DNA of 64,000 nucleotides from an uncultured Lentisphaerota bacterium (GTDB taxonomy: Bacteria; Verrucomicrobiota; Kiritimatiellia; CAIQIC01). The translations under genes were made by a program, and so were the position numbers. Below are positions 7,228-64,000 of the stretch, in pieces. The notes under the pieces are model-generated. The model searched no databases. It was not told where the DNA came from and worked only from the letters and a program-made list of their open reading frames with translations. Every line of letters starts with the position of its first letter. The first letter of the stretch is position 1. The DNA lies in assembly GCA_903912445.1 (NCBI GenBank), contig CAIWHP010000191.1:262-64261 (forward strand), in the 5' to 3' direction.

Positions 7228-7275
7228 TTTCCAACCCTTGGAAAAAGCTTGTCGCGCGTTTCCAAGCCTTGGAAA
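7228..7275. promoter_or_regulatory. Two copies of the palindrome TTTCCAA-N3-TTGGAAA (7228-7244 TTTCCAACCCTTGGAAA; 7259-7275 TTTCCAAGCCTTGGAAA), with centres 31 bp apart, ending 10 nt before the ATG at 7285
   Basis: Read directly. Both copies are perfect 7-3-7 palindromes. Confidence 0.7.
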
Positions 7276-7284
7276 CTGTCCCCA

Positions 7285-8922
7285 ATGAACACGCACCTGA
7301 ATCGTCGTCAATTTCTCAGCACCGCGGCGGGCGCGCTCGGCGCGGCCGGCTGCGCGCGGCTGGACCTGGCGCGGCCGGCGCAGCCGCCGTTCCGCGTCCT
7401 CTATTCCAACGACACGACGAACATCCTCACCTGCAACAGCCCGTGGCACAAGAAGGGCGAATCCTTCCGGCCGGAGATGCTCGAGGCGAGCGTGGACGAG
7501 GTGGCCGGCCGGGGCGTGGAGGCGCAGCTGCTGCAGCCGGGCGTCGGCTGGGTGCCGTGGTGGCAGAGCAAGGTCTATCCGCCCGCGGAGCATTATCGCT
7601 GGCTGAAGCAGACCTATGGGGTGGAGCCGGACAGCTTCGGCCGCTATGTCCTCGGCGGCGGCGACCTCGTGCAGCTGTTCATCGCCCGCTGCCGCCGGCG
7701 CGGGCAGGCCGCGTTCATATCGCTCCGCCTCAACGACGGGCACCACAAGGAGTGGGCGCCAGCCAAGCTGGGCGACAAGATCTCGAGCGGCGCCGGGCAG
7801 GGCCTATGCAAATTTTACTGCGCGCATCTGGATTATCGGATCGGGCCGGACTGGAACGACTGGGCGCAGCGCGTGCAGAACTGGGCGATCCCCGAGGTCC
7901 GCGCCTACAAATTCGCCCTGATCCAGGAACTGTGCGAGAACTACGACCTCGACGGCTTCGAGCTGGATTTCATGCGTTTCTACAGCCTCTTCCAGCTCGA
8001 CAAGACCACGCGCGAGCAGCGGTGTGCGATCGTCACCGGCTTCGTGCGGCAGGTGCGCGCGCTGCTCGACCGCACGGCGCGCGGCGGCCGGCGGCGCTGG
8101 CTGTGCGCCCGCGTGCCCTGCTACCTCAGCGCGCTCGATCCGCTGGGCCTCGACCTGCCGGCGCTCGTCGCGGTGGGGCTCGACATGGTCAACGTGTCGG
8201 CCAGCTACTTCACCATCCAGCAGTGCGATTTCGCGGCGATCCGCCGCCAGGTGCCCCAGGCGGCGGTCTATCTGGAGCTGTGCCACTCCATCTGGAACGG
8301 GCAGCGGGTCCGCGCCGGCTACGATGGTTTCCTCTTCCGGCGCGCGACGCCCGCGCAGATGTATACCGCGGCGCACCTGGCCTATGCGCGCGGGGCCGCT
8401 GGCGTGAGCGCCTTCAACTTCGTCTATTACCGCGAGTACGGCGGCCCCGAGCGCGGCCCGTTCGGCGAGCCGCCGTTCGAGGTCTTCGAGCACCTCGGCG
8501 ACCGCGCGTGGCTGGCCCGGCAGCCGCAGCACTATTTTCTGGCGTCGGGGTGGGGTAATCCGTTTGCGAAGCCCAATGTACTGCCGCGCAAATTGAAGGC
8601 GGACCAGCAGACCCTCTTCCCGCTCGACCTCGCGCCGCCGGCGGGCGGCTGGCAACGGGACGGGCGGCTGCGTATCCAGTGCAAGGCCGACCTCGATACG
8701 CAGCGTTTCACGGCGCGGCTCAATGGCATGGAACTCGTGGCGACTGCCGACCTGGCCGAGCATGGCCTGGTGTTTAACCCTGTCCTGCTCGGTACGCCCG
8801 CGACCCTGCGCGGCTGGACCGTGCCGGCGCACCTGCTGCGCGACGGCGTTAACCAGCTCGAAGTGAAGCTGAACGCCGGCACGCCCATCGAAATCGCCTA
8901 CCTCGACGTCGAGTTGGCCTGA
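7285..8922 (+). CDS. Tat-secreted glycoside-hydrolase-like TIM-barrel protein (family unassigned)
   Basis: MNTHLNRRQFLSTAAGALGAAGCA is a twin-arginine signal. The 545-aa body carries 'LDGFELDFMR' and other hydrolase-barrel-like segments. The ORF-track start at 7249 is a TTG inside the palindrome, so the ATG at 7285 is preferred. Confidence 0.55.
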   Translation: MNTHLNRRQFLSTAAGALGAAGCARLDLARPAQPPFRVLYSNDTTNILTCNSPWHKKGESFRPEMLEASVDEVAGRGVEAQLLQPGVGWVPWWQSKVYPPAEHYRWLKQTYGVEPDSFGRYVLGGGDLVQLFIARCRRRGQAAFISLRLNDGHHKEWAPAKLGDKISSGAGQGLCKFYCAHLDYRIGPDWNDWAQRVQNWAIPEVRAYKFALIQELCENYDLDGFELDFMRFYSLFQLDKTTREQRCAIVTGFVRQVRALLDRTARGGRRRWLCARVPCYLSALDPLGLDLPALVAVGLDMVNVSASYFTIQQCDFAAIRRQVPQAAVYLELCHSIWNGQRVRAGYDGFLFRRATPAQMYTAAHLAYARGAAGVSAFNFVYYREYGGPERGPFGEPPFEVFEHLGDRAWLARQPQHYFLASGWGNPFAKPNVLPRKLKADQQTLFPLDLAPPAGGWQRDGRLRIQCKADLDTQRFTARLNGMELVATADLAEHGLVFNPVLLGTPATLRGWTVPAHLLRDGVNQLEVKLNAGTPIEIAYLDVELA

Positions 8923-8963
8923 ACCCCACGCCGACGGGATGCGCTATCCCACCGGCGCCAAGG

Positions 8964-12410: not shown

Positions 12411-12414
12411 ACTT

Positions 12415-13610: not shown

Positions 13611-13662
13611 GGCCCGCCGTCCGCCGCTGCACCATGCACCATCTCCCCTCAACCATTTTTCT

Positions 13663-14622: not shown

Positions 14623-14632
14623 CGTGGCTAAA

Positions 14633-16186: not shown

Positions 16187-16266
16187 TTTCGAGACCTTGG
16201 AAAGTCCCGCCGCCGTTTTTCCAAGGCTTGGACGGAAGCAGCTCCCTGGTTTCCAAGCCTTGGAAA
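16187..16266. promoter_or_regulatory. Array of three TTTCCAA-N3-TTGGAAA-type palindromes (16187-16203 TTTCGAGACCTTGGAAA; 16218-16234 TTTCCAAGGCTTGGACG; 16250-16266 TTTCCAAGCCTTGGAAA), with centres ~31-32 bp apart, filling the 87-bp gap between two convergent genes
   Basis: Read directly. Positions were checked against ORF-track frames, which read the motifs as FFQGLD and SKPWKN in a spurious frame. Confidence 0.7.
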
Positions 16267-20519: not shown

Positions 20520-21875
20520 ATGTACACGAGGCGGATGGGTCGGGTGCTGATCTTGGCGGCGGCGGTGTGGGCGGCGACGGAGGCCGGGGCCTCGCAGAAG
20601 CGCGTGGCGACCGGCGAGGTCTTCCAGCTCGACACCGTCCTGGCGCGCGCGGATCTCTGGGCGGCGCCGCTGGAGGTGATCGGCCGTGACTTGAACGAGG
20701 GCGGCTTCTACTGGCTGGATGCCCAGAAGAACGCGCTGCGCGGCGGTGAGCGGGTCAAGCTCAGCTTCCTGAAGCAGGAGGTCTGGGAGGCGCAGCTCCA
20801 GCTGGCAAGCAACCGCGCCGCCCGCATGGACCTCTCGCTTTATAATCGCGGCGACGCGGGCGATCTGACCCCGGCCGCCTTCAACAGCCTGCTGGGCAGG
20901 ACGCAGGCCGCGCTCTCGAACTGGACCGGCGTCGCCGGCGCCATGCTGCCGGACCAGCCGGGCGCGATGCGCTCCAAGGTCCAGCGCATGGCGTGGCAGA
21001 AACCGCCGTCGCGCCTGGAACTGGAGTGGAGCTTCACCAAGCAGCAGATCGTCAAAGGCAAGCAGGTGGATTATCGCGCGGAGTTCATCCGGCTCAAGCT
21101 GCTGCCGGCCGCCGGCAGCAACGCGGCGCCGCCACGCGTTGGCGCGCCCGCCGCCGCCAAGGCCGGCCGCACCGCCGCCGAGCTCAAGACGCACGTGCGC
21201 ACCGAGGAGGGCGGCGATGTCTTCGTCGCCAACGTGCCGATGGTGGACCAGGGCGACAAGGGCTATTGCGCGGCCGCCGTCACGGCGCGCGTCATGCGCT
21301 ACTACGGCCTCGACTTCGACGAGCACCAGGCCGCGCAGGCCGCCGGCACCAAGAGCAAGGGCGGCACCAATTCCGGCAGCCTGATTGACGGGCTCAAGCA
21401 GATCGCCATCAAAAATTCCCTGCGCGTCGTCGTGCTGGACCAGGTGGAGATTCCGCGGCTGGTCACGGACTACAACCGCGTCGCTGCCACGGCCAAGAAG
21501 GGCAAGGTCAGCATGGGCACCGGGCATGTGATCGATGTGGACAAAATCTACGGCGATATGGAGGGCGAGCTGCTGCGCACCGTCCGCACCAAGCGCAAGG
21601 ACGAGGTCAACCGCTTCCGGACCGACATTCTCAAGAACATCGAGACCGGTATCCCGGTGATCTGGGGCGTCTATCTCGGCCTCGTACCGGAGAAGTTCCT
21701 GACGCCGCAGACCAAGGGCGGCCATATGCGGATGATCATCGGCCTCAACAAGAAGACCGACGAGGTACTTTTCTCCGACACGTGGGGCGCGGGCCATGAG
21801 CTCAAACGCATGAGTCTTTCGGACGCGGTGACGATCACGCGCGGCCTCTACGTCGTCAAGCCCAACAGCCTGTGA
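20520..21875 (+). CDS. Secreted papain-like (C39-like) cysteine peptidase domain protein
   Basis: Signal peptide MYTRRMGRVLILAAAVWAATEA. A candidate catalytic Cys in 'DKGYCAAAVTARVMRYYG' and His in 'GGHMRMIIGLN' fit a C39/papain-like arrangement. The amino-acid composition is realistic, unlike the overlapping antisense ORF 20364..21797. Confidence 0.5.
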   Translation: MYTRRMGRVLILAAAVWAATEAGASQKRVATGEVFQLDTVLARADLWAAPLEVIGRDLNEGGFYWLDAQKNALRGGERVKLSFLKQEVWEAQLQLASNRAARMDLSLYNRGDAGDLTPAAFNSLLGRTQAALSNWTGVAGAMLPDQPGAMRSKVQRMAWQKPPSRLELEWSFTKQQIVKGKQVDYRAEFIRLKLLPAAGSNAAPPRVGAPAAAKAGRTAAELKTHVRTEEGGDVFVANVPMVDQGDKGYCAAAVTARVMRYYGLDFDEHQAAQAAGTKSKGGTNSGSLIDGLKQIAIKNSLRVVVLDQVEIPRLVTDYNRVAATAKKGKVSMGTGHVIDVDKIYGDMEGELLRTVRTKRKDEVNRFRTDILKNIETGIPVIWGVYLGLVPEKFLTPQTKGGHMRMIIGLNKKTDEVLFSDTWGAGHELKRMSLSDAVTITRGLYVVKPNSL

Positions 21876-21904
21876 GGTCGTGCACGCAAGGAAAGGAACA
21901 CGCG

Positions 21905-22372
21905 ATGAAAACGATGAGCAAAATCAGTATCGGCTTGCTGGCTGTGATGCTGGCCGCGGTCGGCCTGCAGGCCGCAGAAAAAGTCGCCCCCGCGTCCAAG
22001 GAAAAAGCCGCGCCGATGCCGGGTGAATGGAAAATCACCTGCGTCGGTAAACAGGGCAACATGGGCCAGAAGGCCGAGGCCATGAACCAGAGCTTCATGC
22101 TGACCTTCCTCGCAAAGCCGGTCAAGGGCAAGGGGATCGAAGGCAAGCCGTTCGGCTTCGCCATCCTCAACTCGCACTATTCCGAAACCAAGCCCGGCGG
22201 CAACATCAGCTTCACGACCACCTATAAAATGATGAGCAACGTGCCCATCAGCTGGCGCGGCAAGCTCAGCGAGGACGGCACGCAGATCACCGACGGAAAA
22301 TATTCCTTCATGCTCGGCTCTGGCACCTTCACCGCCGAGAAAGTGGTCGCCGCCGCCAAGAAGGCCGAGTGA
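21905..22372 (+). CDS. Small secreted hypothetical protein
   Basis: Start at MKTMSKISIGLLAVMLAAVGLQA (signal peptide). The body is Lys-rich with coding-like composition, 155 aa. Confidence 0.5.
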   Translation: MKTMSKISIGLLAVMLAAVGLQAAEKVAPASKEKAAPMPGEWKITCVGKQGNMGQKAEAMNQSFMLTFLAKPVKGKGIEGKPFGFAILNSHYSETKPGGNISFTTTYKMMSNVPISWRGKLSEDGTQITDGKYSFMLGSGTFTAEKVVAAAKKAE

Positions 22373-22383: not shown

Positions 22384-22400
22384 TTTCCAGGCATTGAAAA
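22384..22400. promoter_or_regulatory. Degenerate copy of the palindrome (TTTCCAGGCATTGAAAA) between convergent genes, next to the 3' end of the LacI-family gene
   Basis: Read directly. It has 2 mismatches to the 7-3-7 consensus. Confidence 0.4.
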
Positions 22401-22433
22401 AAACGGCGTGTATCCGCTCCACTCCTTTGAAAT

Positions 22434-23462
22434 CTAGCGCGTGGTTTCGCCCTGGTGCCAGATGCCGGGGATCAAAATCTGGCGGGGAATGGCGGGCAGG
22501 CCGAAGCGGCCGAGCTCGAGGGAGTTGATCACGGTTTCGATCGCCAGCGCCGCTAGCTGATTCTCGCGTTGAAAGATGCCTGAAAACTTGCTCGTTGGGC
22601 CCACGCCGTGAAACGCTAGGCTGATGTCTTGCGGCACGCGATAACCGAGCGACTCGACCAATTCCTTGACGACTGCCACCTGCGAGACGATGCAGTCCAC
22701 GCGGTACTTCTTGATCCAGCGCGCGAGTCGTCCTTTATCGGCCGGGCTTCCGCCTTCCAGCCAACACACAGGGAAAGCAGGATATTCGGGGTATAGGCTC
22801 GCGAACCGTTGCCGTGCTGTGGTCAGCGAATAGCCCACCTCGCTGTCTATCTTCCGCAGTGTCGCCACGCCGATATGACGATGACCACGCGTCATCAACG
22901 TTTCGAGCAACTTGACATTGTTGAGGTTGTCATCGGCATCCACGATATCCAGTTTCGAATCCGCGGGCAGCGAGCCGCTGTGTACGACCGCATAATGGTT
23001 CCAGTTCCAAGGCCAGTCGGCGACGTTGAACGGTCCGAAAATCTGCAGGATCACACCCTGGATGCCACGCGCGCGGAGCGTGCGGGCCAGTCGGGGCGCG
23101 TCCGCGGCCTTGACGCTTGTGAAGATATCCAGCTTGAACCCCAGTGCTGCGGCGCTTGCCGTAGCGTGCCGCCTATAATAGTCATGCACCATCTTGTCTT
23201 CGGGGTTGGCGAGGTTGTGGTCGGTAAGCCACGCCAGCGTGCCCCGATGCGTGCGGTGTTGCACGCCGCGCAGGTGCGTCATCAGTGCGGAGAGTTTCGC
23301 GTCGCGGCGATAACCTAGTTTTTGCGCCGTCCGGCGCACGCACTGGCGGACGGCGGCGCTGATGCGTACGTCGTTGCGCAAGGCGCGCGACACCGTGGCG
23401 TGGGAAACGCCCGCCTGCCGGGCGAGCTCCCGCATCGTGCATCTGGGGGGTGGTTTTTTCAT
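22434..23462 (-). CDS. LacI-family transcriptional regulator
   Basis: N-terminal HTH 'MRELARQAGVSHATVSRALRN' followed by a periplasmic-binding-protein-like sugar-binding fold. The start is either 23462 (MKKPPP...) or 23435 (MRELARQ). Confidence 0.85.
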   Translation of the reverse strand: MKKPPPRCTMRELARQAGVSHATVSRALRNDVRISAAVRQCVRRTAQKLGYRRDAKLSALMTHLRGVQHRTHRGTLAWLTDHNLANPEDKMVHDYYRRHATASAAALGFKLDIFTSVKAADAPRLARTLRARGIQGVILQIFGPFNVADWPWNWNHYAVVHSGSLPADSKLDIVDADDNLNNVKLLETLMTRGHRHIGVATLRKIDSEVGYSLTTARQRFASLYPEYPAFPVCWLEGGSPADKGRLARWIKKYRVDCIVSQVAVVKELVESLGYRVPQDISLAFHGVGPTSKFSGIFQRENQLAALAIETVINSLELGRFGLPAIPRQILIPGIWHQGETTR

Positions 23463-23553
23463 GCAACGGGTGCACAGCATAGCTCTTGACGGTGGCCGGG
23501 CAAGCCCATTTAATCGCGGGCGCGGAAGCTTTGCCACCCGCTGAAAGGACCAC

Positions 23554-24417: not shown

Positions 24418-24425
24418 AATCAACC

Positions 24426-25748: not shown

Positions 25749-25765
25749 TGTCCAAGCCTTGGAAA
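25749..25765. promoter_or_regulatory. Single near-consensus palindrome TGTCCAAGCCTTGGAAA, ending ~15 nt before the start codon at 25780 and directly 5' of an AAGGA Shine-Dalgarno-like sequence
   Basis: Read directly. It has one mismatch in the left half-site. Confidence 0.55.
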
Positions 25766-26571: not shown

Positions 26572-26601
26572 CGATTCAATCAAGAAAGGAAGGATAGCAA
26601 C

Positions 26602-27015: not shown

Positions 27016-27090
27016 GTTTGCCGCACGCATTCAAAGTCGCCATAGCCGCGTTGTTCAAGGACATCATGCCCGGAGGCAAGGTGCCGTGAA

Positions 27091-27549: not shown

Positions 27550-27624
27550 CCGGAGGGCAAGCGCCGTGACGAACGATGCGGAGATCACTATCATGTGCCG
27601 GGAAAACTGATCAGAAAGGATCCT

Positions 27625-42129: not shown

Positions 42130-42130
42130 G

Positions 42131-44101: not shown

Positions 44102-44149
44102 TTTCCAAGGCTTGGGACTTTTCCGCTCACTGTTTCCAAGGCTTGGAAG
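44102..44149. promoter_or_regulatory. Two palindrome copies (44102-44118 TTTCCAAGGCTTGGGAC; 44133-44149 TTTCCAAGGCTTGGAAG), with centres 31 bp apart. The second ends 12 nt before the ATG at 44162 and directly 5' of AGGAG.
   Basis: Read directly and checked against the ORF-track frame 44099. Confidence 0.7.
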
Positions 44150-49550: not shown

Positions 49551-49557
49551 GGATGAG

Positions 49558-51360
49558 ATGAAATACACGCATCGCGTTTTTCCAATCATGGGAAGCCTGG
49601 GCCTGTTGTTTTTCCAAACATTGGAATCTGCAGCGCGGGCAGGCGCGGATGTGGAGGTGACCTGCATCTATACCAACGGGCGCGTCGAGAAGGCGCTGCT
49701 GCCGCTGGTGCAGGCCGGGACCGTGCAGCGGTTCCGCTGGGCGGCGGACAAGATCCCGGCCGGCGTCAGCCAAGTGGAAGTGCGGGCGGAGTTCGCGACC
49801 GCGAAAACCGGCGAAGACGGCTATTTCGTCATGCCGAACGGGTTCCTCGGCAGCTTCCGCGAGCGCGACGGCGAGCAGAAGCTGACGGCGAGTTATATGC
49901 CGATCTTCGGCATGAAGACGCCGCGGGCCGCCTTTGTCGCCATCGTCACCGGCCTGCCGCACGAATACACGCTGATCGCGCGCGCCAAGGCCGGCGCCTA
50001 CGCGTTCTATCCGCGTTTCGAACTGGGCGGGCGCAAGGCGAACGGCGACATTGCCATCGAGTATCATTTCCTGACGGGTGACGAGGCCGACTACTCGGGC
50101 ATGGCCAGGGCCTACCGCAAATTCCAGCTGGACCGCCAAGCCTGTGTACCCCTGAAGGAACGGATCAAGAGCCGTCCCGAGCTGGCCTATGCGCTGCAGT
50201 GCCCGGAGGTCCGCATCCGCATGGGCTGGAAGCCCGCGCCCAGCCCCGTGGAGGAGCAGACGCCCGCGACGGAGCCGCCAATGAAGGTGGCGGTCACGTT
50301 CGAGCGTGCCGGCGAGATTCTCGATGAGTGCAAGCGGCAGGGCATCGCGCGCGCGGAGTTCTGCCTCGTGGGCTGGAACCAGAAGGGACACGACGGCCGC
50401 TATCCACAACTGTTCCCGGTCGAGGAAGCGCTCGGCGGCGAAGCGCAGCTGCGCGCGTTGACTGCCAAGGCGCAGCAACTGGGCTACCAGCTCGTCTGCC
50501 ACAACAACCATTCCGACGCCTACCGTGTCGCCGACAGCTGGAACGAGGAGTTCGTCATCAAGAATCCGGCCGGCTCGCTCTCGACGAATGCGAGCTGGAG
50601 CGGCGGGCGGATGTATAACCTCTGTCCGCAGCGCGCCTACGAATGTTTCGCCCCGCAGGATCTGCGCGCCATCGCCGCGCTGGGCTTCCGCGGCGTGCAC
50701 TACATTGACGTGCTCTCCATCGTGCGGCCGCGCGCCTGCTACGATCCGCGCCATCCGCTTTCGCCCGACCAGTCGGCGGTGTGGATCAACAAAATCCTGC
50801 ACGAGGCCCGCGAGGTGTTCGGCGGCGTCTCCTCCGAGGGTGGGTTCGATTTCTGCTGCGGCAACCTGGACTACGCGCTCTACGTCTCCTTCGGGCACAT
50901 GACGAGCGTGCCCAAGCTGGTGGACCGCGTCGTGCCGCTCTGGCAGCTCGTCTATCACGGCATCATCATGAGCAACCCGTTCACCGACACGGCGAACTAC
51001 ACGCTCAAGGGCCCTGTCGCCCGGCTCAAGCTCGTCGAGTTCGGCGGCCGCCCGATGTTCTACTTCTATTCAAAATTCAAAGAGGACAACAAGCATTGGA
51101 TGGGCGCCGAGGACCTGACGTGCGCCGACCAGCCCGCGCTCGCCGCGAGCGTCGCGCAGATCAAGGCGGGTTACGACGAGTATGCCGCGCTGTGCCGCCT
51201 GCAGACCGAGTTCATGGACCGGCACGAGCTGCTCGCGCCCGAGGTCTCCCGCACCGCTTATTCCAGCGGGACGGCCATCATCTGCAACTACCGCGACAGC
51301 GACTTTGCTTATCGCGGCCAGCGGGTGCAGCCCCATGGGTACATCGTGGTGGAGCACTAG
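49558..51360 (+). CDS. Hypothetical secreted protein (600 aa) with the LFFQ-type leader. The palindrome pair (49579-49595, 49611-49627) lies inside codons 8-24.
   Basis: ATG with an upstream AAGGA. N-terminus MKYTHRVFPIMGSLGLLFFQTLESAARAGA. No recognisable catalytic motif. Confidence 0.5.
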   Translation: MKYTHRVFPIMGSLGLLFFQTLESAARAGADVEVTCIYTNGRVEKALLPLVQAGTVQRFRWAADKIPAGVSQVEVRAEFATAKTGEDGYFVMPNGFLGSFRERDGEQKLTASYMPIFGMKTPRAAFVAIVTGLPHEYTLIARAKAGAYAFYPRFELGGRKANGDIAIEYHFLTGDEADYSGMARAYRKFQLDRQACVPLKERIKSRPELAYALQCPEVRIRMGWKPAPSPVEEQTPATEPPMKVAVTFERAGEILDECKRQGIARAEFCLVGWNQKGHDGRYPQLFPVEEALGGEAQLRALTAKAQQLGYQLVCHNNHSDAYRVADSWNEEFVIKNPAGSLSTNASWSGGRMYNLCPQRAYECFAPQDLRAIAALGFRGVHYIDVLSIVRPRACYDPRHPLSPDQSAVWINKILHEAREVFGGVSSEGGFDFCCGNLDYALYVSFGHMTSVPKLVDRVVPLWQLVYHGIIMSNPFTDTANYTLKGPVARLKLVEFGGRPMFYFYSKFKEDNKHWMGAEDLTCADQPALAASVAQIKAGYDEYAALCRLQTEFMDRHELLAPEVSRTAYSSGTAIICNYRDSDFAYRGQRVQPHGYIVVEH

Positions 51361-53944: not shown

Positions 53945-55288
53945 ATGAGAAATATCTGGTTGGTCGCCTGGTGTGTGGCCGCCGTGCAGCTGGCGGGTGC
54001 GGTTGTCGATGACGGTTTCCAAAGCACCGCGCGCAGTGACTCGGGGAAGCTGCCGCACGGATACGTGCCGCCGCTGGTCAGCGTTCCCGGCGAGCACCTC
54101 TTGCGCGCGAAGGCGGAGGACGCCTGGCGGGCCGCGTGGGAGCGTTTCTACGACGACCGCACGCATCTGTTCTACGACTATGTTTGCAGCTATGACCCGG
54201 CGAAGCGTCTGGCCAATCTGCCGACGCCGGCGGAGACCGCACAGCAGAAGCCCAATCCCAACGGGTGGGGGACCGGGATGGAAGATTGCGCGATCAGCGG
54301 CGGGCTGATGCTCGCGATGGTCTGCGACCGGTTCACCGCGACGGGCGATGCCGCGCTGCGTCCGTACGCGCAAAAAGTTTTTGCCGGGTTGAAGACGCTG
54401 GTCGAGAGCAGCGCGACAGAAGGTTTCGTCTGCCGCGGCCTCTGTCCCGCCGACGGGAAGGCGCACTACCCGGAAAGTTCCCGCGACCAATACACGTGGT
54501 ATGTCTACGGTCTCTGGCGTTACTACCATTCCCCGCTCGCGCAAGCGGAAGAGAAGGCCGCTGTTCGAAAACTCGTCACCGCCGTCTGTGCACGAATGGA
54601 GCGCAACATTATCCCTGAACGAAATTATTCCATCGGGAAGGACACCGGCGCCTTCGATGGCATCGTGGACAAGATGTGGGAGAACATGGCGCACGAGGTC
54701 GCGCGGTTGCCGATGATCTACGCCATCGGTGCGGATGTGACCGGCGACCAACATTGGAAAGAGCTCGCGCGTCGCTACAGCCCCGAGGCTGCGGCGAAAT
54801 CGAAAGAAGCGTCCACGAAGATTCCCTACGCGCTGCTGCAGCAGCAGACCTCCCTGGAAGTGCTCTATCAGCTGGAGGATGCTCCCGTCCTGAAAAAGCA
54901 GTGGCTGGAGGCGATGGTGCTGGTGGCCGACCGCGCCAAGGGGTTCTTCGGCAAATGCCTCAAATATCAGGCCCCGACCGCCGATCAGGTGCATTTCGAT
55001 TGGCGGGACTGGCCGCTGAAGAAATCGGGGCCCTACAGTGTGCCCACGCGGCCCGAGGCCTTCCTCTCCGAAGACCGCACGATCCGCGAGCCGGCCGAGG
55101 CTGCGCTGGTGCAGCTGCTGATGCCCCAGCCAACGCTGACCGCGGAACAACTCGCGTTGATGAAGCAGGCCATCGCGCAGGTGGATTACGCCAAGGTGGT
55201 TTACTACGGGCACTACTACACGCAGGCTGTTTATTGGCGGGCTGTGCGCTGCGGTCTGCTCAAGCTGCCGGCCGCACCACGAAACTGA
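53945..55288 (+). CDS. Secreted hypothetical protein, possibly an (alpha/alpha)6-toroid glycoside-hydrolase-like fold
   Basis: Signal MRNIWLVAWCVAAVQLAGA. A helix-rich body with 'GWGTGMEDCAISGG' is reminiscent of alpha-toroid hydrolases. The assignment is weak. Confidence 0.45.
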   Translation: MRNIWLVAWCVAAVQLAGAVVDDGFQSTARSDSGKLPHGYVPPLVSVPGEHLLRAKAEDAWRAAWERFYDDRTHLFYDYVCSYDPAKRLANLPTPAETAQQKPNPNGWGTGMEDCAISGGLMLAMVCDRFTATGDAALRPYAQKVFAGLKTLVESSATEGFVCRGLCPADGKAHYPESSRDQYTWYVYGLWRYYHSPLAQAEEKAAVRKLVTAVCARMERNIIPERNYSIGKDTGAFDGIVDKMWENMAHEVARLPMIYAIGADVTGDQHWKELARRYSPEAAAKSKEASTKIPYALLQQQTSLEVLYQLEDAPVLKKQWLEAMVLVADRAKGFFGKCLKYQAPTADQVHFDWRDWPLKKSGPYSVPTRPEAFLSEDRTIREPAEAALVQLLMPQPTLTAEQLALMKQAIAQVDYAKVVYYGHYYTQAVYWRAVRCGLLKLPAAPRN

Positions 55289-55299
55289 AGGAGAAACCT

Positions 55300-57975
55300 A
55301 TGAAGCAGAACATGATGATCCTGGCGGGGCTGACCCTGGCGGCAGGTCTGGCTCACGGCGCACCGATGGCCTGCTGGCATTTCGACGGCGACCTCTCCGG
55401 CGGTGCGGCTCCTGCACTCGCGGGCAAGGCCGGGGTGTTCGAAAAAGGCACGCCGCCGGTGTTCGCTGGGGATGTGCCGGCCACGAACATTTGGGATGGC
55501 GCGACGTTCTCATCGGCCAACCCGGCGAACAAGAGTGGGCTACGCTTTGCCAATGACGGCGTGACCGGGGTGGGCAGTCCCCTGGGTGGCGAGGTGGTGG
55601 TTTCCGGGGCGGAGGCACAGACGCAGCCGGCGGAGTTCACGGTCGAGGCGTTCGTCAAGATGGGCAAGCAGATGGCGCGGCACGCGCTGCTCGCGAGCAA
55701 GCGGCGCAACGGGCAGACGGGCGCGAGCTGGTCGCTCTCGATTGACCCGCAGGGCTGCATCCGCGCGCGGTTCGATACGCAGCCCGGCGCGGATTCGAAG
55801 AGCGGCGAGGGCTTCAATCAAACCATGGGCTCCAGCGGGAGTGTGACCGATGGCGCGTGGCACCATGTGGCGCTGACGTTCGACCGCGCGACGCTGGCAG
55901 CGGCCATCTATGTGGACCACGTCCGGTGTGGCGGCGGCACGACCAAGGGGCCGCTGGTCTATGACGGCGGCCCGCTGGTGCTCGGGCGCGGGCTGGATGG
56001 CTGGCTGGATGAGGTGCGCTTGACCGGCGCTGTCTTGCACCCGGAGCAATTCCTCCGCACCACCCGCTTCTTCTCCGAACTGAAGCCGCGCGCGCCGGTG
56101 GTGACGATGCTGGACCAAACGCCGACGCGTGTGCAGTCCGCGCTGAAACTCGACTGGAAAAAGCTGGGCACCTTGACGCCGAAGAGCGTGGAAGAAATCG
56201 GCACCTCGATGTGGTCGCTGGGCTGCGAGACGCTCGACCGCGACCTCGCGGATTGGGACGTCTACAAAACCTATCTCCAGCCGCTGGGCATCAAGCGGAT
56301 CCGCCTGCAGGGCGGCTGGAACCGGACCGAAAAGCAGAAGGGCGTCTATGACTTCGCCTGGCTGGACCACATCGTGGACGATGCGCACGCGCGCGGGCTG
56401 CAGGTCTGCCTGGAGACCTCCTACAACAACCACCTGTACGAGCCGAAGGGCGCGACGGGGCCGGGCGGGCAATTGCCGGCGGGCGAGGAGACGCTGGCGG
56501 CTTGGGACAAGTGGGTCGAGGCGATGGCGCGCCACTATGCACCCATGGGCGTGCAGGAATGGATGATGTATAACGAGCCCAACCTGAACAAGAGCAACAC
56601 GCTGGAGAAGATCGTCGCGAACAACATCCGCACGGCGGAGATCATCAAGCGCGTGGACCCGCAGGCGAAGATCGGCGCGTTCGTGCTGGCGGGCTTGTCT
56701 GTCGACAGGATCGAGAAGATGCTGGAAATGATCAAGGCGCAGGGCAAACTCGACCTTTTCCACTGGGCCATCTATCACGGCTACAGCGGCAATCCCGACC
56801 GGCTGAACGAGGCGATGAAGGAATTCACGGCGATGCTGGCGAAAGTCGCGCCGCAAATCAAACCGTGGCAGGGCGAGGCCGGCTGCGCCTCCGAGGAGGT
56901 GCAGTACGCGCTCTCCGGGATCGACTGGACCGAGTATTCCCACGCCAAGTGGAACGCGCGGCGGATGCTGTGCGACCTCGGCCACGGCATCGAGTCTTCC
57001 GTGTTCACCATCACGGATTTGAGCTATCACCGCGACTTCATCTCGCGGTACGGGCTGCTGAAGACCAGTCCGGACAATGCGATCATCAGGGTGAAGACCG
57101 CCTACTACGTCGTGCAAAATGTCGTGGCGGTGTTCAACGACGCGCTGGAACGCGTGCCGGACTATGCGCTGACGGTCACCGGGACGGAGAAGGCGCTGAC
57201 CTGGTTCGCGTTCCGCGACAAGAAGAGCAAGCTGGAGGTGGTGACGCTGTGGGACGGCACGGAGATTCCGTCCAACACGTCGGATGTCGAGACGGTGGAG
57301 GTCACGATCAAGCACGGGCAGTTCCGCCAGCCGGTGTGGGTGGACCTGGTCACCGGCAACGTGTACGAAATCCCGGCGGAGCAGGTGAAGATTGCCGGCG
57401 ACACGGTGACGTTCAAGGACCTGCCGGTCTACGACGGACCGGCGGCCATCACCGACCGGAGCCTGCTGTCGTTTGTGCCGGCGCGGGAGAGCAAGAAAGC
57501 GAAAGCGGCGTCGGCCGCCAAAACGAAGCGCACGGCCAAAGCCGACACGCTCCTGATGACCAAGCATCTGTTGCCCGGGACCCAGCAACCTGCGCCCGCC
57601 GTGGTGCTGTGCGCTGCCAAGGGCGAAGAGGTCGGCGGTCTCGTGAAATGGCTGAACGCGCAGGACGTCCATGTGTTCGTCGTGGAAAGCGCTGCCGTCA
57701 TGAAGCGCGCCTTGCAGACGATCCGCAGCCACGCCGCAGAGTGGCAGGTGAAACCGGGTTCCATCGGTGTGTTGGGCAGCGGCAAGCATGGCGTGGAAAG
57801 CGTGAAGGGCGTGATCGGTGATGCCGATTTCGCGGTTGTGCTGGACGCCGATGGCGCGGACATCGCCAAGGCTCTTCCTGAGGCGAAGCGCAAGGCTGTG
57901 TTCACCGGCAAGCAGGGCGAGTTTGAGAAGCCGCTCGCGACCTGGCTGGAGAAATACAAAGGAAAAGTGTTTTGA
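55300..57975 (+). CDS. Secreted multidomain protein: LamG/concanavalin-like domain, then clan GH-A glycoside hydrolase domain (paralog of the 44162 gene), then a C-terminal domain of unknown function
   Basis: Signal MKQNMMILAGLTLAAGLAHGA. LamG-like 'DGAWHHVALTFD...LDEVRL'. The GH domain 'MWSLGCETLDRDLADWDVYKTYLQPLGIKRIRLQGGW...WMMYNEPN...PWQGEAG' is collinear with the 44162 protein. Confidence 0.65.
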   Translation: MKQNMMILAGLTLAAGLAHGAPMACWHFDGDLSGGAAPALAGKAGVFEKGTPPVFAGDVPATNIWDGATFSSANPANKSGLRFANDGVTGVGSPLGGEVVVSGAEAQTQPAEFTVEAFVKMGKQMARHALLASKRRNGQTGASWSLSIDPQGCIRARFDTQPGADSKSGEGFNQTMGSSGSVTDGAWHHVALTFDRATLAAAIYVDHVRCGGGTTKGPLVYDGGPLVLGRGLDGWLDEVRLTGAVLHPEQFLRTTRFFSELKPRAPVVTMLDQTPTRVQSALKLDWKKLGTLTPKSVEEIGTSMWSLGCETLDRDLADWDVYKTYLQPLGIKRIRLQGGWNRTEKQKGVYDFAWLDHIVDDAHARGLQVCLETSYNNHLYEPKGATGPGGQLPAGEETLAAWDKWVEAMARHYAPMGVQEWMMYNEPNLNKSNTLEKIVANNIRTAEIIKRVDPQAKIGAFVLAGLSVDRIEKMLEMIKAQGKLDLFHWAIYHGYSGNPDRLNEAMKEFTAMLAKVAPQIKPWQGEAGCASEEVQYALSGIDWTEYSHAKWNARRMLCDLGHGIESSVFTITDLSYHRDFISRYGLLKTSPDNAIIRVKTAYYVVQNVVAVFNDALERVPDYALTVTGTEKALTWFAFRDKKSKLEVVTLWDGTEIPSNTSDVETVEVTIKHGQFRQPVWVDLVTGNVYEIPAEQVKIAGDTVTFKDLPVYDGPAAITDRSLLSFVPARESKKAKAASAAKTKRTAKADTLLMTKHLLPGTQQPAPAVVLCAAKGEEVGGLVKWLNAQDVHVFVVESAAVMKRALQTIRSHAAEWQVKPGSIGVLGSGKHGVESVKGVIGDADFAVVLDADGADIAKALPEAKRKAVFTGKQGEFEKPLATWLEKYKGKVF

Positions 57976-58032
57976 GTCTGCCGGTGGCCGCGCGAAGAAA
58001 TGAACCGAGCTAATGGAGCTGGAGAAGAAACT

Positions 58033-59313
58033 ATGAGACACATGATGCGTTGGAATTTTCCAGTGATGGGAACCTTGGCATTGCTGTTTTTCCAAGCATG
58101 GGGGATCAATGCTGCTGATGCCGTGCCGGCAAAAGCACCGATTCCGGTTTGGGATCTGGCGAAGGATGCCTTCGCCGCCACCACCGGGAAGATCGAGCGC
58201 GTGAACGGGCAGGTTCACATGGATGGCAGAAGCGCGTTCGCGATTCCCAACAGCGCGCTGCCCGATCCCAACTGTTTCACGATCACCATGGACATCCGCT
58301 TCCACAAGATCGAGCAGCGCGGCCATCTGCATCTGCTGGACCAGCGGGTGTCGGACACCGGCTTCAGCGTCGATGCGCTCAACCTTAGCGCGGTCGGCAG
58401 CCCGCTGACGACGACGATCAACGGCATCGCCTATGCCCGCAACAGCTTCCGGGCCACGACGAACCAGGTGTGGCAGTTCGTTTTCGCCGTGCGCGATGGC
58501 GCGGTTGCGGTCTATCAAAACAAGTCGGCCGGGCCGCAGTATCTGCTGCGCATCACGCCGAACCTCGCGCCGATCTGGGTCGGGCGCACGAAGAGCGAGC
58601 CGATCGCCGACTACGATATTCTTAGCCTGAAGGTGTTCGGACCGGACTACAAATATTACCTGCCGGGCGAGTCGGCGGACGCGATGAAGAACGGGTTCAC
58701 CGGCGGGCAGGGCTGGCTGGTCCGGCTGCCGGGCAAGATCGAAAAGCCGCTGCCGCGCATCCTCTATTACGGCGATTCCATTTCCGGGGGCTACGGCGAA
58801 CGCTTCACCGCGCTCATGAAGGACAAGGCCTATTGTTATCACTGGGTCCATTTCGTCGGCAGTGTCGGCGGGTTCCAGACCAATGCGTTTGTGGCGGCGG
58901 CGGGTGTCGCGCCATTCGACGTGATCATCTTCAACAACGGGCTGCACTCGTTGAGCTGGACGCCCGACAAGGCCACCGACGCGCAGATCGAAGCCGTGCT
59001 GCGCAACATGGTCCGCGCCTTCCGCCAGGGCGCGCCAAAGGCGAAACTGATCTGGGCCGCCACGACGCCGCACACCGCCAAGGGCAAACCCGTTACCGGC
59101 CTCGGCGAGAAGAATCCCGTCGTCATCCGGATCAACACCCTCGCGGAAAAAGTCATGAAGGAAGAGGGCGTGGACATGGTTGATCTCTACGCGCTGCTGA
59201 AAGATCATCTCAACCTCGCTGCCGGCGACCAGTATCATTGGTCGGGCGAGGCCTATCAACTGATCGCAGCCGCGCTGCAGAAAAAGTGTGACGCCATCTT
59301 GTCTCATCCTTAA
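58033..59313 (+). CDS. Secreted SGNH/GDSL hydrolase with an N-terminal beta-sandwich domain and the LFFQ-type leader. The palindrome pair (58057-58073, 58089-58105) lies inside codons 9-25.
   Basis: ATG at 58033 with an upstream GGAGAAG. N-terminus MRHMMRWNFPVMGTLALLFFQAWGINAADA. 'ILYYGDSISGGYG' (GDS block) and 'GDQYHWSGEAY' (DxxH block). Confidence 0.65.
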   Translation: MRHMMRWNFPVMGTLALLFFQAWGINAADAVPAKAPIPVWDLAKDAFAATTGKIERVNGQVHMDGRSAFAIPNSALPDPNCFTITMDIRFHKIEQRGHLHLLDQRVSDTGFSVDALNLSAVGSPLTTTINGIAYARNSFRATTNQVWQFVFAVRDGAVAVYQNKSAGPQYLLRITPNLAPIWVGRTKSEPIADYDILSLKVFGPDYKYYLPGESADAMKNGFTGGQGWLVRLPGKIEKPLPRILYYGDSISGGYGERFTALMKDKAYCYHWVHFVGSVGGFQTNAFVAAAGVAPFDVIIFNNGLHSLSWTPDKATDAQIEAVLRNMVRAFRQGAPKAKLIWAATTPHTAKGKPVTGLGEKNPVVIRINTLAEKVMKEEGVDMVDLYALLKDHLNLAAGDQYHWSGEAYQLIAAALQKKCDAILSHP

Positions 59314-59331
59314 AAGGAACAGGAGCTGCTC

Positions 59332-62300: not shown

Positions 62301-62631
62301 TGAAGGGCGTGTCGCCAACGGCGAGATGAACTACTATCGCCTGCTCGCCTGCCGGGAACTGGGCGCGGCCAAGGACGAAGCGGATCAGAAACAAAAGCTC
62401 CAGTCCGCGCTGGCCGCGCTGGAGCAGCCCGAGACCGTGGATGCCTATGCCAAGTTCGGCGGCGAAAACACGCCCAACGAACGGCTGGGTCACCGCTCGG
62501 CCGAGGCCGCCTATCTCAAGGGCTTGCTGGCGCTGGCGGAAAAGAATTCCGGTGAAGCCAAAAACTGTTTCGAGCGCGCGGTCAAAGAGCGTCCGGCCCT
62601 GATCTGGGCGCAGTTCTTTTTGCAAAGGTGA
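59332..62631 (+). CDS. Large secreted DUF5107-like domain protein with C-terminal TPR repeats
   Basis: Signal MKMRARSGIALLFLCSTAWCSA. The N-terminal ~450 aa resemble the DUF5107 family seen in polysaccharide-utilisation loci, as I recall it. The C-terminal half holds many TPR-like helical repeats (YYLGIVLKEQGRLKEAEDQLWKAV, AYILRQLGQKKEADAALNKAVELDP, and so on). Confidence 0.55.
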   Translation: MKMRARSGIALLFLCSTAWCSAGVKVEETKVTVPTYPPGPCDKTPVFYTGRVYQGAQGRVYPYPLQDVLHDEKVDKTYTALRLENEYLEMSVLPEIGGRLFSFTDKATGFDIFYRQSVIKPALIGMLGAWTSGGVEWNFPHHHRATTFMPVNYTTTANADGSKTIWVGETELRHRMKWSIGLSMKPGRSYLEADCRFMNRQPYLESMLYWANVSVHCGTNYQVLFPPACRVGMDHHKNYFTHFPLGRPNVAIDELADLSWWKNFTSDHRSIFAVDPDNDFLAGYDHGRGLGTAHVANHQIVCGKKFFLWGNNPGGFVWDKVLTDHDGPYLELMVGAYSDNQPDYSWLSPYETRSCKQYWYPIKQIGGVKCATLDAAINLERRAPDKVFLGFNATAKLKHAKVVLHHGAATFSEVIDIDPNTPYVKEVPVAPAVKDTELTGILFDPDGRELVRYTPVVVEDKPLPETVENPQPPATYKTVEELYLVGQRLEQFHNGIVDPTPYYEEALRRDPLDLRVHTVVGIRLARQAKFADAETHLRRAVERTTRNHTRAKDAEPHYYLGIVLKEQGRLKEAEDQLWKAVWRDSFQRAAYIELAKLATLKHDYPRALELINSALDVAARSSKAHTVKAYILRQLGQKKEADAALNKAVELDPLDVWSVAERCFLKGKGQSAFATAARPCGDKLQELLEVVTDYGNIGALDEALALLSQAEAFTNPLVKYYAGYYNLQAGRTNEARTLFSGAAALPTDYCFPFRHEELKMLAAATELCPADANTWYYLGNLCYYLEQRERGIAAWEQAVVLNPSHGLALRNLGFAYGRMPEKRATAVARYKAGLKADPQNVACVLELDKLFEKLNRPAAARLAFLESHMATAQKSDPTMLRLAYLYNETGQHDKALAILGARRFHVWEGAAALHQPFVDACLLRGLAKLAAGKNQSALQDFQQADTYPENLQAGRPGDAGQGPKIHYYTAQAQRALGAADKAQAELRKAVEGRVANGEMNYYRLLACRELGAAKDEADQKQKLQSALAALEQPETVDAYAKFGGENTPNERLGHRSAEAAYLKGLLALAEKNSGEAKNCFERAVKERPALIWAQFFLQR

Positions 62632-62634
62632 ACT

Positions 62635-64000
62635 ATGAAACACATTTCGCTTTGGAATATTCCAAGGCTTGGAACTCTCTGCCTGCTGTTTTTCCAAGGG
62701 TTGGAAACGCAGGCGGCAGGCGGGTTGCAAGGTGCACGCGGTGTGCTCACCGTGGACGCGCAGGGCATCAGCCTCGCACCGGCCTCCGCGACTTGCCCGA
62801 CGATCACGGCGCGGGGCGAGCCGATGTGGGCGGTGCTGATGCAGTCGGATACGCCGCCGCCGGTCGCCGGCGCGCCCGTCGTGCTCGGCGACAAGGGCCA
62901 GCAGCCCCAGCGCGAGGTCACCGCCGACGGCATCCGGCTGACCTACGCAAGTCTCACGGACGGCAAGCGCACGTGGCGTGTCGGGGTGACGCTCGATTTC
63001 CACCGCAAGGGCGACGCGTTCGAGGTGACCGGCGAGGTCCGCAACGACGAGCCGGGCTGGCTCATGTGCGGCTTCACCGGCCCGGTATTGCACGGCATCC
63101 GCGCCGATCTCGCGACGCATCCGGCGCTGTTGCCCGATGGTCTGGGCCGCATCATCCACCGGATGCCCGATGACAAGAAAGGCAGCAACGAGGTCGGCGT
63201 TGTATATCCGAGCCGCAAAGGGACGATGCAGTGGTGCACTCTTTCCGGCGCGCAGGGCGGGCTCTACTTCGGTTGCCACGACGCCACGCATGGCGCGAAA
63301 ACGATTTGCGTGCGGCGCGATGCCGCCAGCCAGACCTATGGACTCGCGGTGAAGCATCAGGCGTTTTGCGCGGTGGGTCAGCGCTGGGCGTTGCCGCCGA
63401 CGGTCATCATGCCCTACGCGGGCTCGTGGCACACCGCCGCCCGCTATTACCGGGCGTGGAGCGAAAGCATCGAGCCGCCGCTCGCCGTGCCGGAGTGGGC
63501 GCGCAACGCCTCCGGCTGGCTGCTCTGTATCCTGAAACAGCAGAATGGCGAGGTGCATTGGGATTATTCCTCGCTCGGCAAATTGTGCGACGTGGCCGAT
63601 GCGCGCGGGCTCGACATCCTCGGCCTGTTTGGCTGGGCGCACGGCGGGCACGATCATCTCTATCCTGAATATTTCTCCGACCCTAAGATGGGTGGCGAGG
63701 AGGCGCTGCGCAAGGCGCTGCGTGACATCCGGCAGCGCGGCAAACGCTCCATCCTCTATGCCAACGGCCAGCTCATCGAACAGGGCACGGAATTTTGGAG
63801 CAAGGAAGGCCAGGCGCTGGCGGTGCTGAAAAAGGACGGCACGCCCGTACAGCAGACCTATCACAAGTACCGCACGACCGCGCCGTTTCGCTTCGGCCTC
63901 GGCTGCCTGGTCGCGCCGGCGTGGTTCGACCGCATGCTCGCGCTCGCGGTGCAGGCCCACGCGCTCGGCGCGGACGGCATCCTCTATGACCAGCTTGGCG
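62635..64000 (+). CDS. Secreted hypothetical protein (partial; runs off the window end) with the LFFQ-type leader. The palindrome pair (62659-62675, 62691-62707) lies inside codons 9-25.
   Basis: ATG at 62635, preceded by AAAGG. Translating it by hand gives no stop up to position 64000. The ORF track omits it, presumably because no stop falls inside the window. N-terminus MKHISLWNIPRLGTLCLLFFQGLETQAAGG. The body is TIM-barrel-like (GWAHGGHDHLYPEYF). Confidence 0.55.
   Translation, partial: MKHISLWNIPRLGTLCLLFFQGLETQAAGGLQGARGVLTVDAQGISLAPASATCPTITARGEPMWAVLMQSDTPPPVAGAPVVLGDKGQQPQREVTADGIRLTYASLTDGKRTWRVGVTLDFHRKGDAFEVTGEVRNDEPGWLMCGFTGPVLHGIRADLATHPALLPDGLGRIIHRMPDDKKGSNEVGVVYPSRKGTMQWCTLSGAQGGLYFGCHDATHGAKTICVRRDAASQTYGLAVKHQAFCAVGQRWALPPTVIMPYAGSWHTAARYYRAWSESIEPPLAVPEWARNASGWLLCILKQQNGEVHWDYSSLGKLCDVADARGLDILGLFGWAHGGHDHLYPEYFSDPKMGGEEALRKALRDIRQRGKRSILYANGQLIEQGTEFWSKEGQALAVLKKDGTPVQQTYHKYRTTAPFRFGLGCLVAPAWFDRMLALAVQAHALGADGILYDQLG

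Follow-up and report, generated by a model that had tools for sequence, protein, structure and literature searches.

An apparently undescribed family of helically phased palindromes at gene boundaries in Kiritimatiellia, Lentisphaerae and Verrucomicrobia

Why should a short palindrome recur, in pairs set about three helical turns apart, at the edges of genes? The question is raised by a 64,000-nt stretch of DNA from an uncultured Lentisphaerota bacterium (GTDB lineage Bacteria; Verrucomicrobiota; Kiritimatiellia; CAIQIC01; GenBank assembly GCA_903912445.1, contig CAIWHP010000191.1, positions 262 to 64,261 of the forward strand), hereafter called the window, in which the sequence TTTCCAA-N3-TTGGAAA occurs repeatedly. 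The window is a region rich in glycoside hydrolases, esterases and domains of unknown function (DUFs), and the original prediction for this DNA took the palindrome to be the operator of a dimeric transcription factor serving secreted enzymes, with a repetitive extragenic palindrome or an RNA hairpin as alternatives. Our analysis indicates that the motif is a lineage-wide and seemingly undescribed palindrome family, present in many Kiritimatiellia, Lentisphaerae and Verrucomicrobia genomes. Tentatively, we favor the view that its copies are cooperative sites for a putative dyad-symmetric DNA-binding protein.

Copies, distribution and spacing of the palindrome

The window was searched for TTTCCAA-N3-TTGGAAA at no more than two mismatches, with dinucleotide-preserving shuffles as the control. 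Thirteen sites were found, against a shuffle mean of 0.05 and a maximum of 1. A looser search recovered the copies at 58057 (two mismatches in the 12-base core) and 58089 (three mismatches), and an extra degenerate copy at 22416-22432, mismatched at 4 of 14 core positions, follows the one at 22384 by 32-33 bp. The total is 16 palindromes in eight clusters, which bears out the earlier figure of about 16 copies, 13 of them exactly where they had been placed and the further degenerate ones through the looser search. Start-to-start spacings were 31, 31, 32, 31, 32, 32 and 32 bp, with 32-33 bp for the degenerate 22384/22416 pair; the phasing of 31-32 bp claimed for the window was thus confirmed, at 31-33 bp for all neighbors. 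The AT-rich palindromes are conspicuous against a G+C content of about 65%. A scan of the window found no tRNA genes and no Rfam matches at curated gathering thresholds. The clusters, with their immediate surroundings, are as follows.

7228-7244 and 7259-7275: two perfect copies, spacing 31 bp; 52 nt past the stop at 7176, ending 9 nt short of the ATG at 7285
16187..16266 (copies at 16187, 16218 and 16250): three copies, spacings 31 and 32 bp; filling the gap between the convergent stops of an amidohydrolase gene (ends 16186) and creD (ends 16274)
22384-22400 and 22416-22432: a two-mismatch copy and a degenerate phased copy; between the convergent stops of the open reading frame (ORF) 21872-22372 and the LacI-family gene 22434-23561
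25749..25765: single copy, one mismatch; starting at the first base past the stop of the gene 24393-25748, 14 nt before the ATG at 25780
44102..44149: two copies, spacing 31 bp; 20 nt past the stop at 44082 and followed by an AGGAG Shine-Dalgarno sequence and the ATG at 44162 of a gene like glycoside hydrolase family 42 (GH42)
49579..49627: two copies, spacing 32 bp; codons 8-24 of a DUF5696 gene (start 49558)
58057..58105: two degenerate copies, spacing 32 bp; codons 9-25 of a GDSL-lipase gene (start 58033)
62659..62707: two copies, spacing 32 bp; codons 9-25 of a DUF6259 gene (start 62635)

Three kinds of placement had been claimed, and all of them held. Copies stand 9, 14 and 12 nt before the ATGs at 7285, 25780 and 44162, the last distance being measured from the final copy of the 44102/44133 array; pairs lie within the first 25 codons of the ORFs at 49558, 58033 and 62635; and copies lie between convergent stops at 16187-16266 and 22384. 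The gene at 7285, downstream of the 7228..7275 array, has a twin-arginine signal.

For the wider distribution, one genome per species, 185,579 species in all, was scanned for two exact cores 30-33 bp apart. At least 114 loci from about 46 metagenome-assembled genomes (MAGs) match this pattern, and among the matches listed every labelled MAG belongs to Kiritimatiellia/Kiritimatiellales, Lentisphaerae, Verrucomicrobia(ota), 'Spartobacteria' or Pontiella (L066 being a motif-positive Pontiella MAG). Since the NCBI labels of such MAGs are coarse, the claim is limited to many divergent lineages of this group and does not extend to the whole phylum. The data for these loci consist of 8-kb blocks, 818 kb in all, which contain 447 sites with at most one core mismatch, compared with 0-2 in shuffles. 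The GC content of the motif-bearing MAGs ranges from 49% to 73%, and near-perfect sites occur at roughly 0.2-0.9 per kb, at all kinds of gene boundary. DprA and a phosphoribosyltransferase, both common to motif-positive MAGs, are 43-60% identical between them, indicating that the carriers are deeply diverged. One locus, L038 ('uncultured Lentisphaerae bacterium LJ_bin-4696', CAITZM01), is close kin, with about 93% DNA identity to the window at 47.7-55.6 kb. Exact-sequence queries with two window proteins met no entry, so that the window genome itself is absent from the collection queried. Among 2.9 million viral contigs there were seven matches, a count that is uninformative about function. 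Neither this sequence nor any such repeat in these phyla turned out to be described in the literature searched. Among the outcomes that the original prediction had named as counting against it are a motif no commoner than chance and a lack of phased pairs elsewhere. Neither was observed: the excess is 13 to 0.05 in the window and 447 to 0-2 in the scanned loci, and same-face spacing recurs in about 46 genomes.

A logo built from 485 unique sites gave the consensus TTTTCCAA-K-S-M-TTGGAAAA, with G or C at the center. The TTCCAA and TTGGAA cores supply 12 positions of about 2 bits each, and flanking runs of T and A extend the dyad to 19 bp. The center base is G or C in 478 of the 485 sites, and its neighbors favor T or G on the left and A or C on the right. 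Hence the spacer written as N3 in the original prediction is not free: the element is really a 19-bp palindrome of 9-1-9 form with a constrained center. The accompanying remark that the odd spacer argues against a LacI-family operator still stands, since the 9-1-9 site is itself of odd length. Within a genome the central triplet behaves as a dialect, being TSA in one MAG (88 of 89 sites), GSC in the window, in the related locus L115 and in two others, ACA/TGT/ACC/GGT in two MAGs and GGG in another.

Arrays consist of one to six copies, most commonly two, with spacers of 12-15 bp or 4-5 bp. Spacer sequences within an array are mostly unrelated despite the exact spacing, and some arrays have alternating spacer types that indicate 62-bp duplications. 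Spacing was counted in pairs of neighbors, within 120 bp of each other, in which at least one copy was imperfect and which were thus unable to trigger the search pattern. These unselected pairs lay at 31 bp (34 pairs), 32 bp (27), 30 bp (1), 33 bp (1) and 21-23 bp (4), with scattered others, so that 61 of 80 fell at 31 or 32 bp. Loci that had not been chosen by the pattern, namely the window and L115-L117, gave 31 bp 12 times and 32 bp 10 times, and ten further perfect pairs at 21-22 bp came from about nine genomes. The allowed spacings correspond to two or three turns of B-DNA, which is the signature of proteins touching on one face of the helix. The same-face phasing noticed in the window is therefore a real constraint, seen in about 46 genomes, with a second class at 21-22 bp, and re-created inside coding sequence.

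Gene context and copies within coding sequence

Genes were called from third-position GC content together with a self-trained codon model, and the products were scanned against Pfam. All eight window clusters begin 0-82 nt past a stop codon, and six of them in addition lie ahead of, or reach into, the 5′ end of the next same-strand gene; by type of junction, clusters are found at 6 of the 37 co-directional, 2 of the 5 convergent and none of the 5 divergent ones. Their neighbors had been described as secreted hydrolases, esterases or hypotheticals without exception, and this is not the case, as an amidohydrolase, CreD and a LacI-family gene are among them. In the scanned loci, arrays are found in 95 of the 503 co-directional gaps, 25 of the 79 convergent and 22 of the 75 divergent ones. 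Expressed as density per kb, this is about 3.1 in convergent, 2.1 in co-directional and 1.3 in divergent gaps, and about 0.06 in coding DNA. Such a gradient is the opposite of that expected from a promoter-bound regulator, and resembles that of repetitive extragenic palindromic (REP) sequences or DNA uptake sequences (DUS), which accumulate where they are least harmful. Only 16% of sites lie deep within genes, although 88% of the DNA is coding; enrichment outside genes is roughly 40-fold, with about 84% of sites outside genes or at their edges and a concentration 0-12 nt past stop codons. Flanking genes elsewhere are of every kind (SecA, ValRS, a MiaB-like enzyme, YjeF, RseP, MCP, MreC, a LysA-like protein, DegT), which refutes a carbohydrate regulon. 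Consensus scans of the window revealed no excess of sigma-70-like promoters or intrinsic terminators.

The arrays also disturb annotation. Start calls are unreliable at arrays (49558, 58033 and 62635 in the window, and many loci elsewhere), where the caller picks a start after the array or the TTG of TTGGAA, and public gene calls sometimes begin at the ATG within CCAATGATTGG. In six cases the central TGA doubles as a stop codon. At L115 11777-11791, L116 1861-1875 and L117 1948-1962 it is the stop codon of the DUF5696 gene, and gene callers take the ATG overlapping that TGA for the next gene's start, so that its N-terminus is extended through the array; in the window, the DUF5696 gene ends in another C-terminus, and no copy lies at that stop. 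A role in stop/start coupling was considered and rejected: there are only six cases, the sense strand carries TGA as often as TCA, and the overlap looks incidental.

Three of the window pairs lie in coding sequence. Those at 49579, 58057 and 62659 read F-P-x-x-G and then F-Q-x-L-E, that is, two repeats in two frames (F-P-I-M-G followed by F-Q-T-L-E in the 49579/49611 pair), and they plausibly encode the hydrophobic core of predicted signal peptides. From the ribosome-binding site onward the three cassettes are homologous in DNA (family D4).

49551..49647, + strand: signal-peptide cassette 1, with ribosome-binding site, ATG, basic n-region and two palindromes
58029..58113, + strand: signal-peptide cassette 2, family D4
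62631..62715, + strand: signal-peptide cassette 3, family D4

Among 120 DUF5696 homologues, the conserved (A)xVEVTC stretch that opens the mature protein is in nearly every case preceded by a signal peptide of ordinary, unrelated sequence, and the palindrome-encoded peptide is confined to the closest relatives, P0001/L116 and L038. The P0002/L117 protein, 87% identical, lacks the array and starts with another signal peptide. In L115 the array-encoded peptide LFPSLGTLALLFFQALE is preserved in both the GDSL and the DUF6259 orthologue (about 80% identity). Peptides shared by relatives in this way indicate that arrays were recruited as coding sequence and retained. Searches of NCBIfam and Pfam gave no family for the array-encoded peptides. 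Six other window genes (17868, 19085, 31132, 32615, 34249 and 37504) open with homologous DNA encoding MNTTIARSLVSALALGA-type signal peptides (family D1), and signal-peptide cassettes are thus common to neighboring genes here even without the palindrome.

The intragenic share of copies is 0% in the window lineage and 45-73% in three MAGs, and three intragenic cases were checked against solved structures. MnmE (L085) contains two pairs at exactly 31 nt within conserved domains, the first of which (GSNVWKIADEIFQTLEK) is gap-free against T. maritima TrmE. TsaB (L093) contains four copies in all three frames (IFQTLE, FFQTLE, SNDWK, FPTIG), including a 31-nt pair, and its alignment to YeaZ needs no more than one gap of a single residue. 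In RlmN (L107 2881-4008, minus strand) the FQCLE and FQTLE copies align gap-free to RlmN structures. The same protein has an in-frame insertion of about 45 residues, made up of two TTCCAA palindromes and a GC-rich REP-like hairpin or repeat, which resembles the in-frame palindromic elements of Rickettsia. Judging from these alignments, the gap-free copies in MnmE, TsaB and RlmN, and the spacing between them, arose by point substitution. Simple transposition cannot explain copies made in this manner. Some directional force on the DNA, whether selection for binding sites or molecular drive, is at work.

DNA recognition and the competing explanations

Is the palindrome read as DNA or as RNA? Stem mismatches compatible with G:U pairing numbered 59 in the sense and 68 in the antisense orientation. 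The outer dyad positions of the 485-site logo showed no Watson-Crick covariation beyond base frequencies, and within genomes the bases at +-1 did not covary (261 observed, 283 expected). The centers of adjacent copies were not complementary beyond expectation (94 versus 98.8), which argues against one long copy-to-copy hairpin, and the central triplet was TGA 42 times and TCA 46 times on the sense strand of the upstream gene. In RNA folding predictions a lone copy barely folds, if at all, and a pair can form one hairpin of about -20 kcal/mol. Rfam gave nothing at gathering score, and at relaxed thresholds only spurious miRNA-hairpin matches that stem from copy-to-copy complementarity. All six tests for hairpin selection were negative. 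The hairpin offered as an alternative in the original prediction is left without support, as G:U asymmetry, covariation and neighbor complementarity are all lacking. Conserved sequence without covariation, together with helical phasing, favors recognition of double-stranded DNA by a symmetric protein.

Our preferred explanation, which falls just short of what we would call probable, is that the palindromes are cooperative sites for a putative dyad-symmetric protein, whose nucleoprotein complexes at gene boundaries would have a generic architectural, boundary or self-marking role. A protein with dyad symmetry, probably a dimer, would read the palindromes as double-stranded DNA, and dimers on adjacent copies would touch across three turns (31-32 bp) or in fewer cases across two (21-22 bp), with a pair or short array on one helix face as the working unit. 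The complexes might then sit wherever the genome tolerates them, mostly in short gaps past stops and around starts, and could serve in a generic way as architecture, boundary or roadblock, or as a self-DNA tag, as opposed to the operator of one regulon. Here we infer binding, cooperativity and role alike. A broader form of this explanation is conceivable, and we advance it on a more tentative footing: a lineage-wide system in which a putative protein reads pairs of the 19-bp palindrome, and in which pressure writes such pairs into MnmE, TsaB and RlmN, fills gene boundaries and leads to recruitment as signal peptides, amounting to a genome-wide 'punctuation' or self-marking code. The operator of a dimeric factor named in the original prediction thus survives in part: the dyad-symmetric DNA site and the same-face spacing stand, and the carbohydrate or secreted-enzyme regulon does not, given the housekeeping flanks and the density in convergent gaps. 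A link to the LacI- or XylR-like genes of the window found no support.

The geometry has precedents. NrdR boxes, NtrC 7-3-7 sites and Lrp/FFRP arrays are dyads of 13-17 bp, some with a 3-bp center, placed 31-32 (or 21) bp apart on one face. Tandem NrdR boxes, NtrC 7-3-7 sites and Lrp arrays are matched by the present motif in this respect (31-32 or 21 bp). Unlike NrdR boxes, the motif has a different sequence and no nrd gene context. Moreover, these systems have few sites, upstream of defined regulons, or degenerate ones (Lrp), whereas the motif is found at about 0.2-0.9 sites per kb everywhere.

Several observations weigh against cooperative binding as the explanation. A search for a cognate gene met only diverse housekeeping genes beside the largest arrays, and no binding protein was found. 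The information content is about 25-29 bits (inflated by site selection), compared with an estimated 13 or so that would be sufficient, and an excess of this kind is commoner among repeats that are related through copying or molecular drive. The order of densities, from convergent through co-directional and divergent gaps down to coding DNA, is what passive accumulation where tolerated predicts, and function is not demonstrated thereby. By our own count, the 49579/49611 pair differs from its counterpart in L038 at about 14% of positions, compared with 7% over the long aligned block; since the pair has diverged more than its surroundings, constraint on individual copies is weak. No copy is present in three contigs, 49 kb in total, whose DUF5696 orthologues are 62-71% identical, and the distribution is accordingly patchy. 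Excess information and patchy distribution keep drive and selfish models alive. Finally, all the context statistics rest on crude gene calls of our own.

The alternative that survives best, although we regard it as unlikely, is a selfish interspersed palindrome, either of the kind of REP sequences and bacterial interspersed mosaic elements (BIMEs) or like dRS3 and the Neisseria intergenic mosaic element (NIME). It would be spread by a transposase, a recombinase or gene conversion, would grow in tandem, and would have only incidental effects on the host. Like REP/BIME, the motif is a short palindrome present in hundreds of copies, mostly extragenic, with a preference for 3′ ends and convergent gaps, intra-operon arrays and variable copy number; REP/BIME are also known as docking sites for IHF and gyrase and as landing pads for mobile DNA. 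Turnover of this sort is visible between relatives. L115 is syntenic with the window at 40-64 kb and about 80% identical at the protein level, and all four window arrays at 44-63 kb have counterparts at the same L115 junctions. Copy number differs, with five copies in L115 versus two upstream of the GH42-like gene, and three non-coding versus two coding copies at DUF5696; L115 has additional arrays that are absent from the window. The presence or absence of the motif among related genomes, the homogeneity of the triplets per genome (88 of 89 TSA), the 62-bp duplications, the excess information, the landing of other mobile repeats beside copies and the scarcity of matches in viral contigs all speak for a selfish repeat as well. 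Indeed, the REP/BIME alternative raised in the original prediction matches the genomic behavior of the motif better than its operator did.

What it does not match are the defining features of REPs. REP superfamilies are marked by a GTAG or CGTC tetranucleotide at one end of the stem-loop (PMC3733652). Our 485 sites have T- and A-run flanks and no such tag, and a GTAG-tagged repeat found in L115 (see below) is clearly distinct. The same 12-14 core bases are common to genomes whose housekeeping proteins are 43-60% identical, whereas REPs are specific to a species or genus. The copies are direct and helically phased, with variable spacers that are mostly unrelated yet of exact length, in contrast to the alternating Y and Z forms of REPs. 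Copies and phased pairs in MnmE, TsaB and RlmN are gap-free relative to distant homologues, pointing to substitution and not insertion, and no transposase lies beside the largest arrays within the 8-kb MAG blocks. NIME, with dRS3, is alike in that it consists of arrays of a 20-bp palindrome and variable segments, beside surface-protein genes, which serve as integration targets; its spacers of 50-150 bp are irregular, unlike those of the motif. Rickettsia palindromic elements (RPEs) are repeats tolerated in-frame, comparable to the signal-peptide copies and the RlmN insertion, but they are insertions of 100-150 bp. Neither NIME nor RPE is class- or phylum-wide or quantised in steps of 10.5 bp.

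Quite improbable, in our estimation, is a DNA-uptake or self-recognition sequence comparable to uptake signal sequences (USS) and DUS, for which a receptor would prefer phased palindromes and recombination of taken-up DNA would drive copy number. The substitution-made copies in housekeeping genes, in all three frames, fit this explanation, as do the dialects around an invariant core, the enrichment at 3′ ends as an inverted repeat, the lineage-restricted and patchy distribution and the rarity in viral contigs. Like HIP1 (GCGATCGC), the highly iterated palindrome of cyanobacteria, and like USS/DUS, the motif is lineage-wide, hyper-abundant, made in place by substitution and also present in coding sequence, and DUS in addition have lineage dialects and inverted pairs after genes. 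On the other hand, HIP1 and USS/DUS are 8-12 bp long, mostly intragenic and free of phased arrays, whereas the motif is 19 bp long, enriched outside genes and strictly spaced. Uptake sequences as known are 9-12-mers, asymmetric and not set in helically phased tandem arrays, and the phasing would go unexplained. They are mostly intragenic, whereas no copy lies deep inside genes in the window lineage (the intragenic share in three MAGs being 45-73%), and natural transformation of these lineages is not documented in the searchable literature. The competence gene dprA is present in two motif-positive loci (L019 5490-6623 and L099 1099-2256, from two MAGs, 55% identical); as dprA is widespread, this is at most weakly relevant to uptake.

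We hold it very unlikely that the copies act in RNA, as hairpins in 5′ untranslated regions, between cistrons or at 3′ ends that affect mRNA stability, processing or translation in the manner of the malEFG REP hairpins. Copies do lie at cistron junctions, past stops and beside ribosome-binding sites, a pair is foldable to about -20 kcal/mol, and canonical terminators are not enriched in the window. Against this stand the lack of a sense-strand G:U bias, of compensatory change, of neighbor complementarity and of a TGA/TCA strand bias; no fold is predicted for a lone copy, steps of about 10.5 bp have no rationale in RNA, there is no genuine Rfam match, and copies occur in divergent gaps and deep in coding regions. 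The weakest candidate, a local operator through which the LacI-family or XylR-like factor of the window would control secreted carbohydrate-active enzymes, is contradicted by the data and barely credible: six of the eight window clusters precede or overlap the 5′ ends of exported-protein genes, and dyad symmetry and same-face spacing are operator-like, but elsewhere the motif is flanked by unrelated housekeeping genes, two of the window clusters sit between convergent stops and the five divergent gaps are without any (divergent density also being the lowest of the gap classes overall), the orthologous DUF5696 clusters of three related genomes have no copy, and an odd-length 9-1-9 palindrome with a single G/C center misfits the even LacI palindrome with its central CG.

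Other candidates were tried and rejected. As an intrinsic terminator the element has an AT-rich stem, A on its 3′ side and no U-tract, copies are also found in divergent gaps, and terminator-like sites are not in excess. If TTGGAA is taken as the -35 box of a promoter, the next copy places TCCAA or TTCCAA at -10, which is not a sigma-70 -10 box, and promoters are not in excess; a promoter like those of extracytoplasmic function (ECF) sigma factors leaves single copies, 21-22 bp arrays and convergent-gap copies unexplained. A motif at the protein level was dismissed, as the repeat is translated in each of the three frames and is also present between convergent stops. Finally, CRISPR arrays have repeats of 23-50 bp and unique spacers of comparable length, usually in many units and near cas genes, compared with 17-19 bp here, where spacers are 12-15 or 4-5 bp and units number one to six, and no cas domains were found among the scanned window proteins. 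The element fails the defining tests of a REP sequence, a regulon operator, an RNA family and a CRISPR array.

Neighboring repeats and significance

A second, distinct type of repeat lies beside the arrays of L115. Six doublets of a GTAG-tagged REPIN (REP doublet forming a hairpin; CGCCGGGTCGGAGACCCGGCCTACA ... TGTAGGCCGCGTGACCTCACGCGGCG) were found in 21.8 kb.

L115 3700-3775, 9845-9915, 11879-11945, 15595-15665, 19640-19715 and 20995-21078: GTAG-tagged REPINs

At least four of these REPINs end at a distance of 0-2 nt from the first TTCCAA palindrome, suggesting that the palindrome edge is a target for REPIN insertion. In the L115 genes starting at 19629 and 20989 the called ORF reads through the REPIN, which appears as an Arg-rich in-frame stretch in the n-region of the signal peptide. 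The GTAG-REPIN family was searched for in the window and is absent there. The REPIN is a recent mobile repeat, and the palindrome arrays are older. In L038 (reverse strand) a hairpin-rich insertion of about 125 nt, in-frame and stop-free, lies between the DUF5696 ATG and the palindrome pair (corresponding to window 49558-49578). It occupies the same relative position as the L115 REPINs and represents a second, independent insertion of a repeat.

Some further features of the window were noted. Positions 640-940 are non-coding and AT-richer, and a different repeat, GTCCCAAGCGTCCCA (a direct 9-nt repeat of GTCCCA), occurs there at least five times, on both strands; this looks like a cluster of binding sites or iterons, unrelated to the palindrome. 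At 26533-27572, three small tandem ORFs end in the same segment of about 40 nt, which encodes LFKxIMxGGKAP and a stop (family D8) and has no Pfam match. The GH42-like gene 44162-45625 shows, at 44573-45598, 72-76% DNA identity to the C-terminal half (56458-57465) of the 1099-residue Laminin_G_3/GH gene 54676-57975 (families D2, D3, D10 and D13), which indicates an internal paralogue or domain duplication.

For annotation, the arrays matter because pipelines misplace starts at them, at an ATG or TTG inside the palindrome, and they could serve as a taxonomic marker for binning contigs of these lineages. The repeated reuse of arrays as signal peptides indicates that non-coding repeats can supply export signals, and the exactly spaced pairs made in place in essential genes are a rare clean case of pressure at the DNA level overriding protein sequence. 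If a protein does read the phased palindromes, it would be a major unstudied genome organizer, or a marker of self and non-self, in environmentally abundant degraders of polysaccharides, and the motif would offer an immediate handle for finding such a protein by pull-down or phylogenetic profiling.

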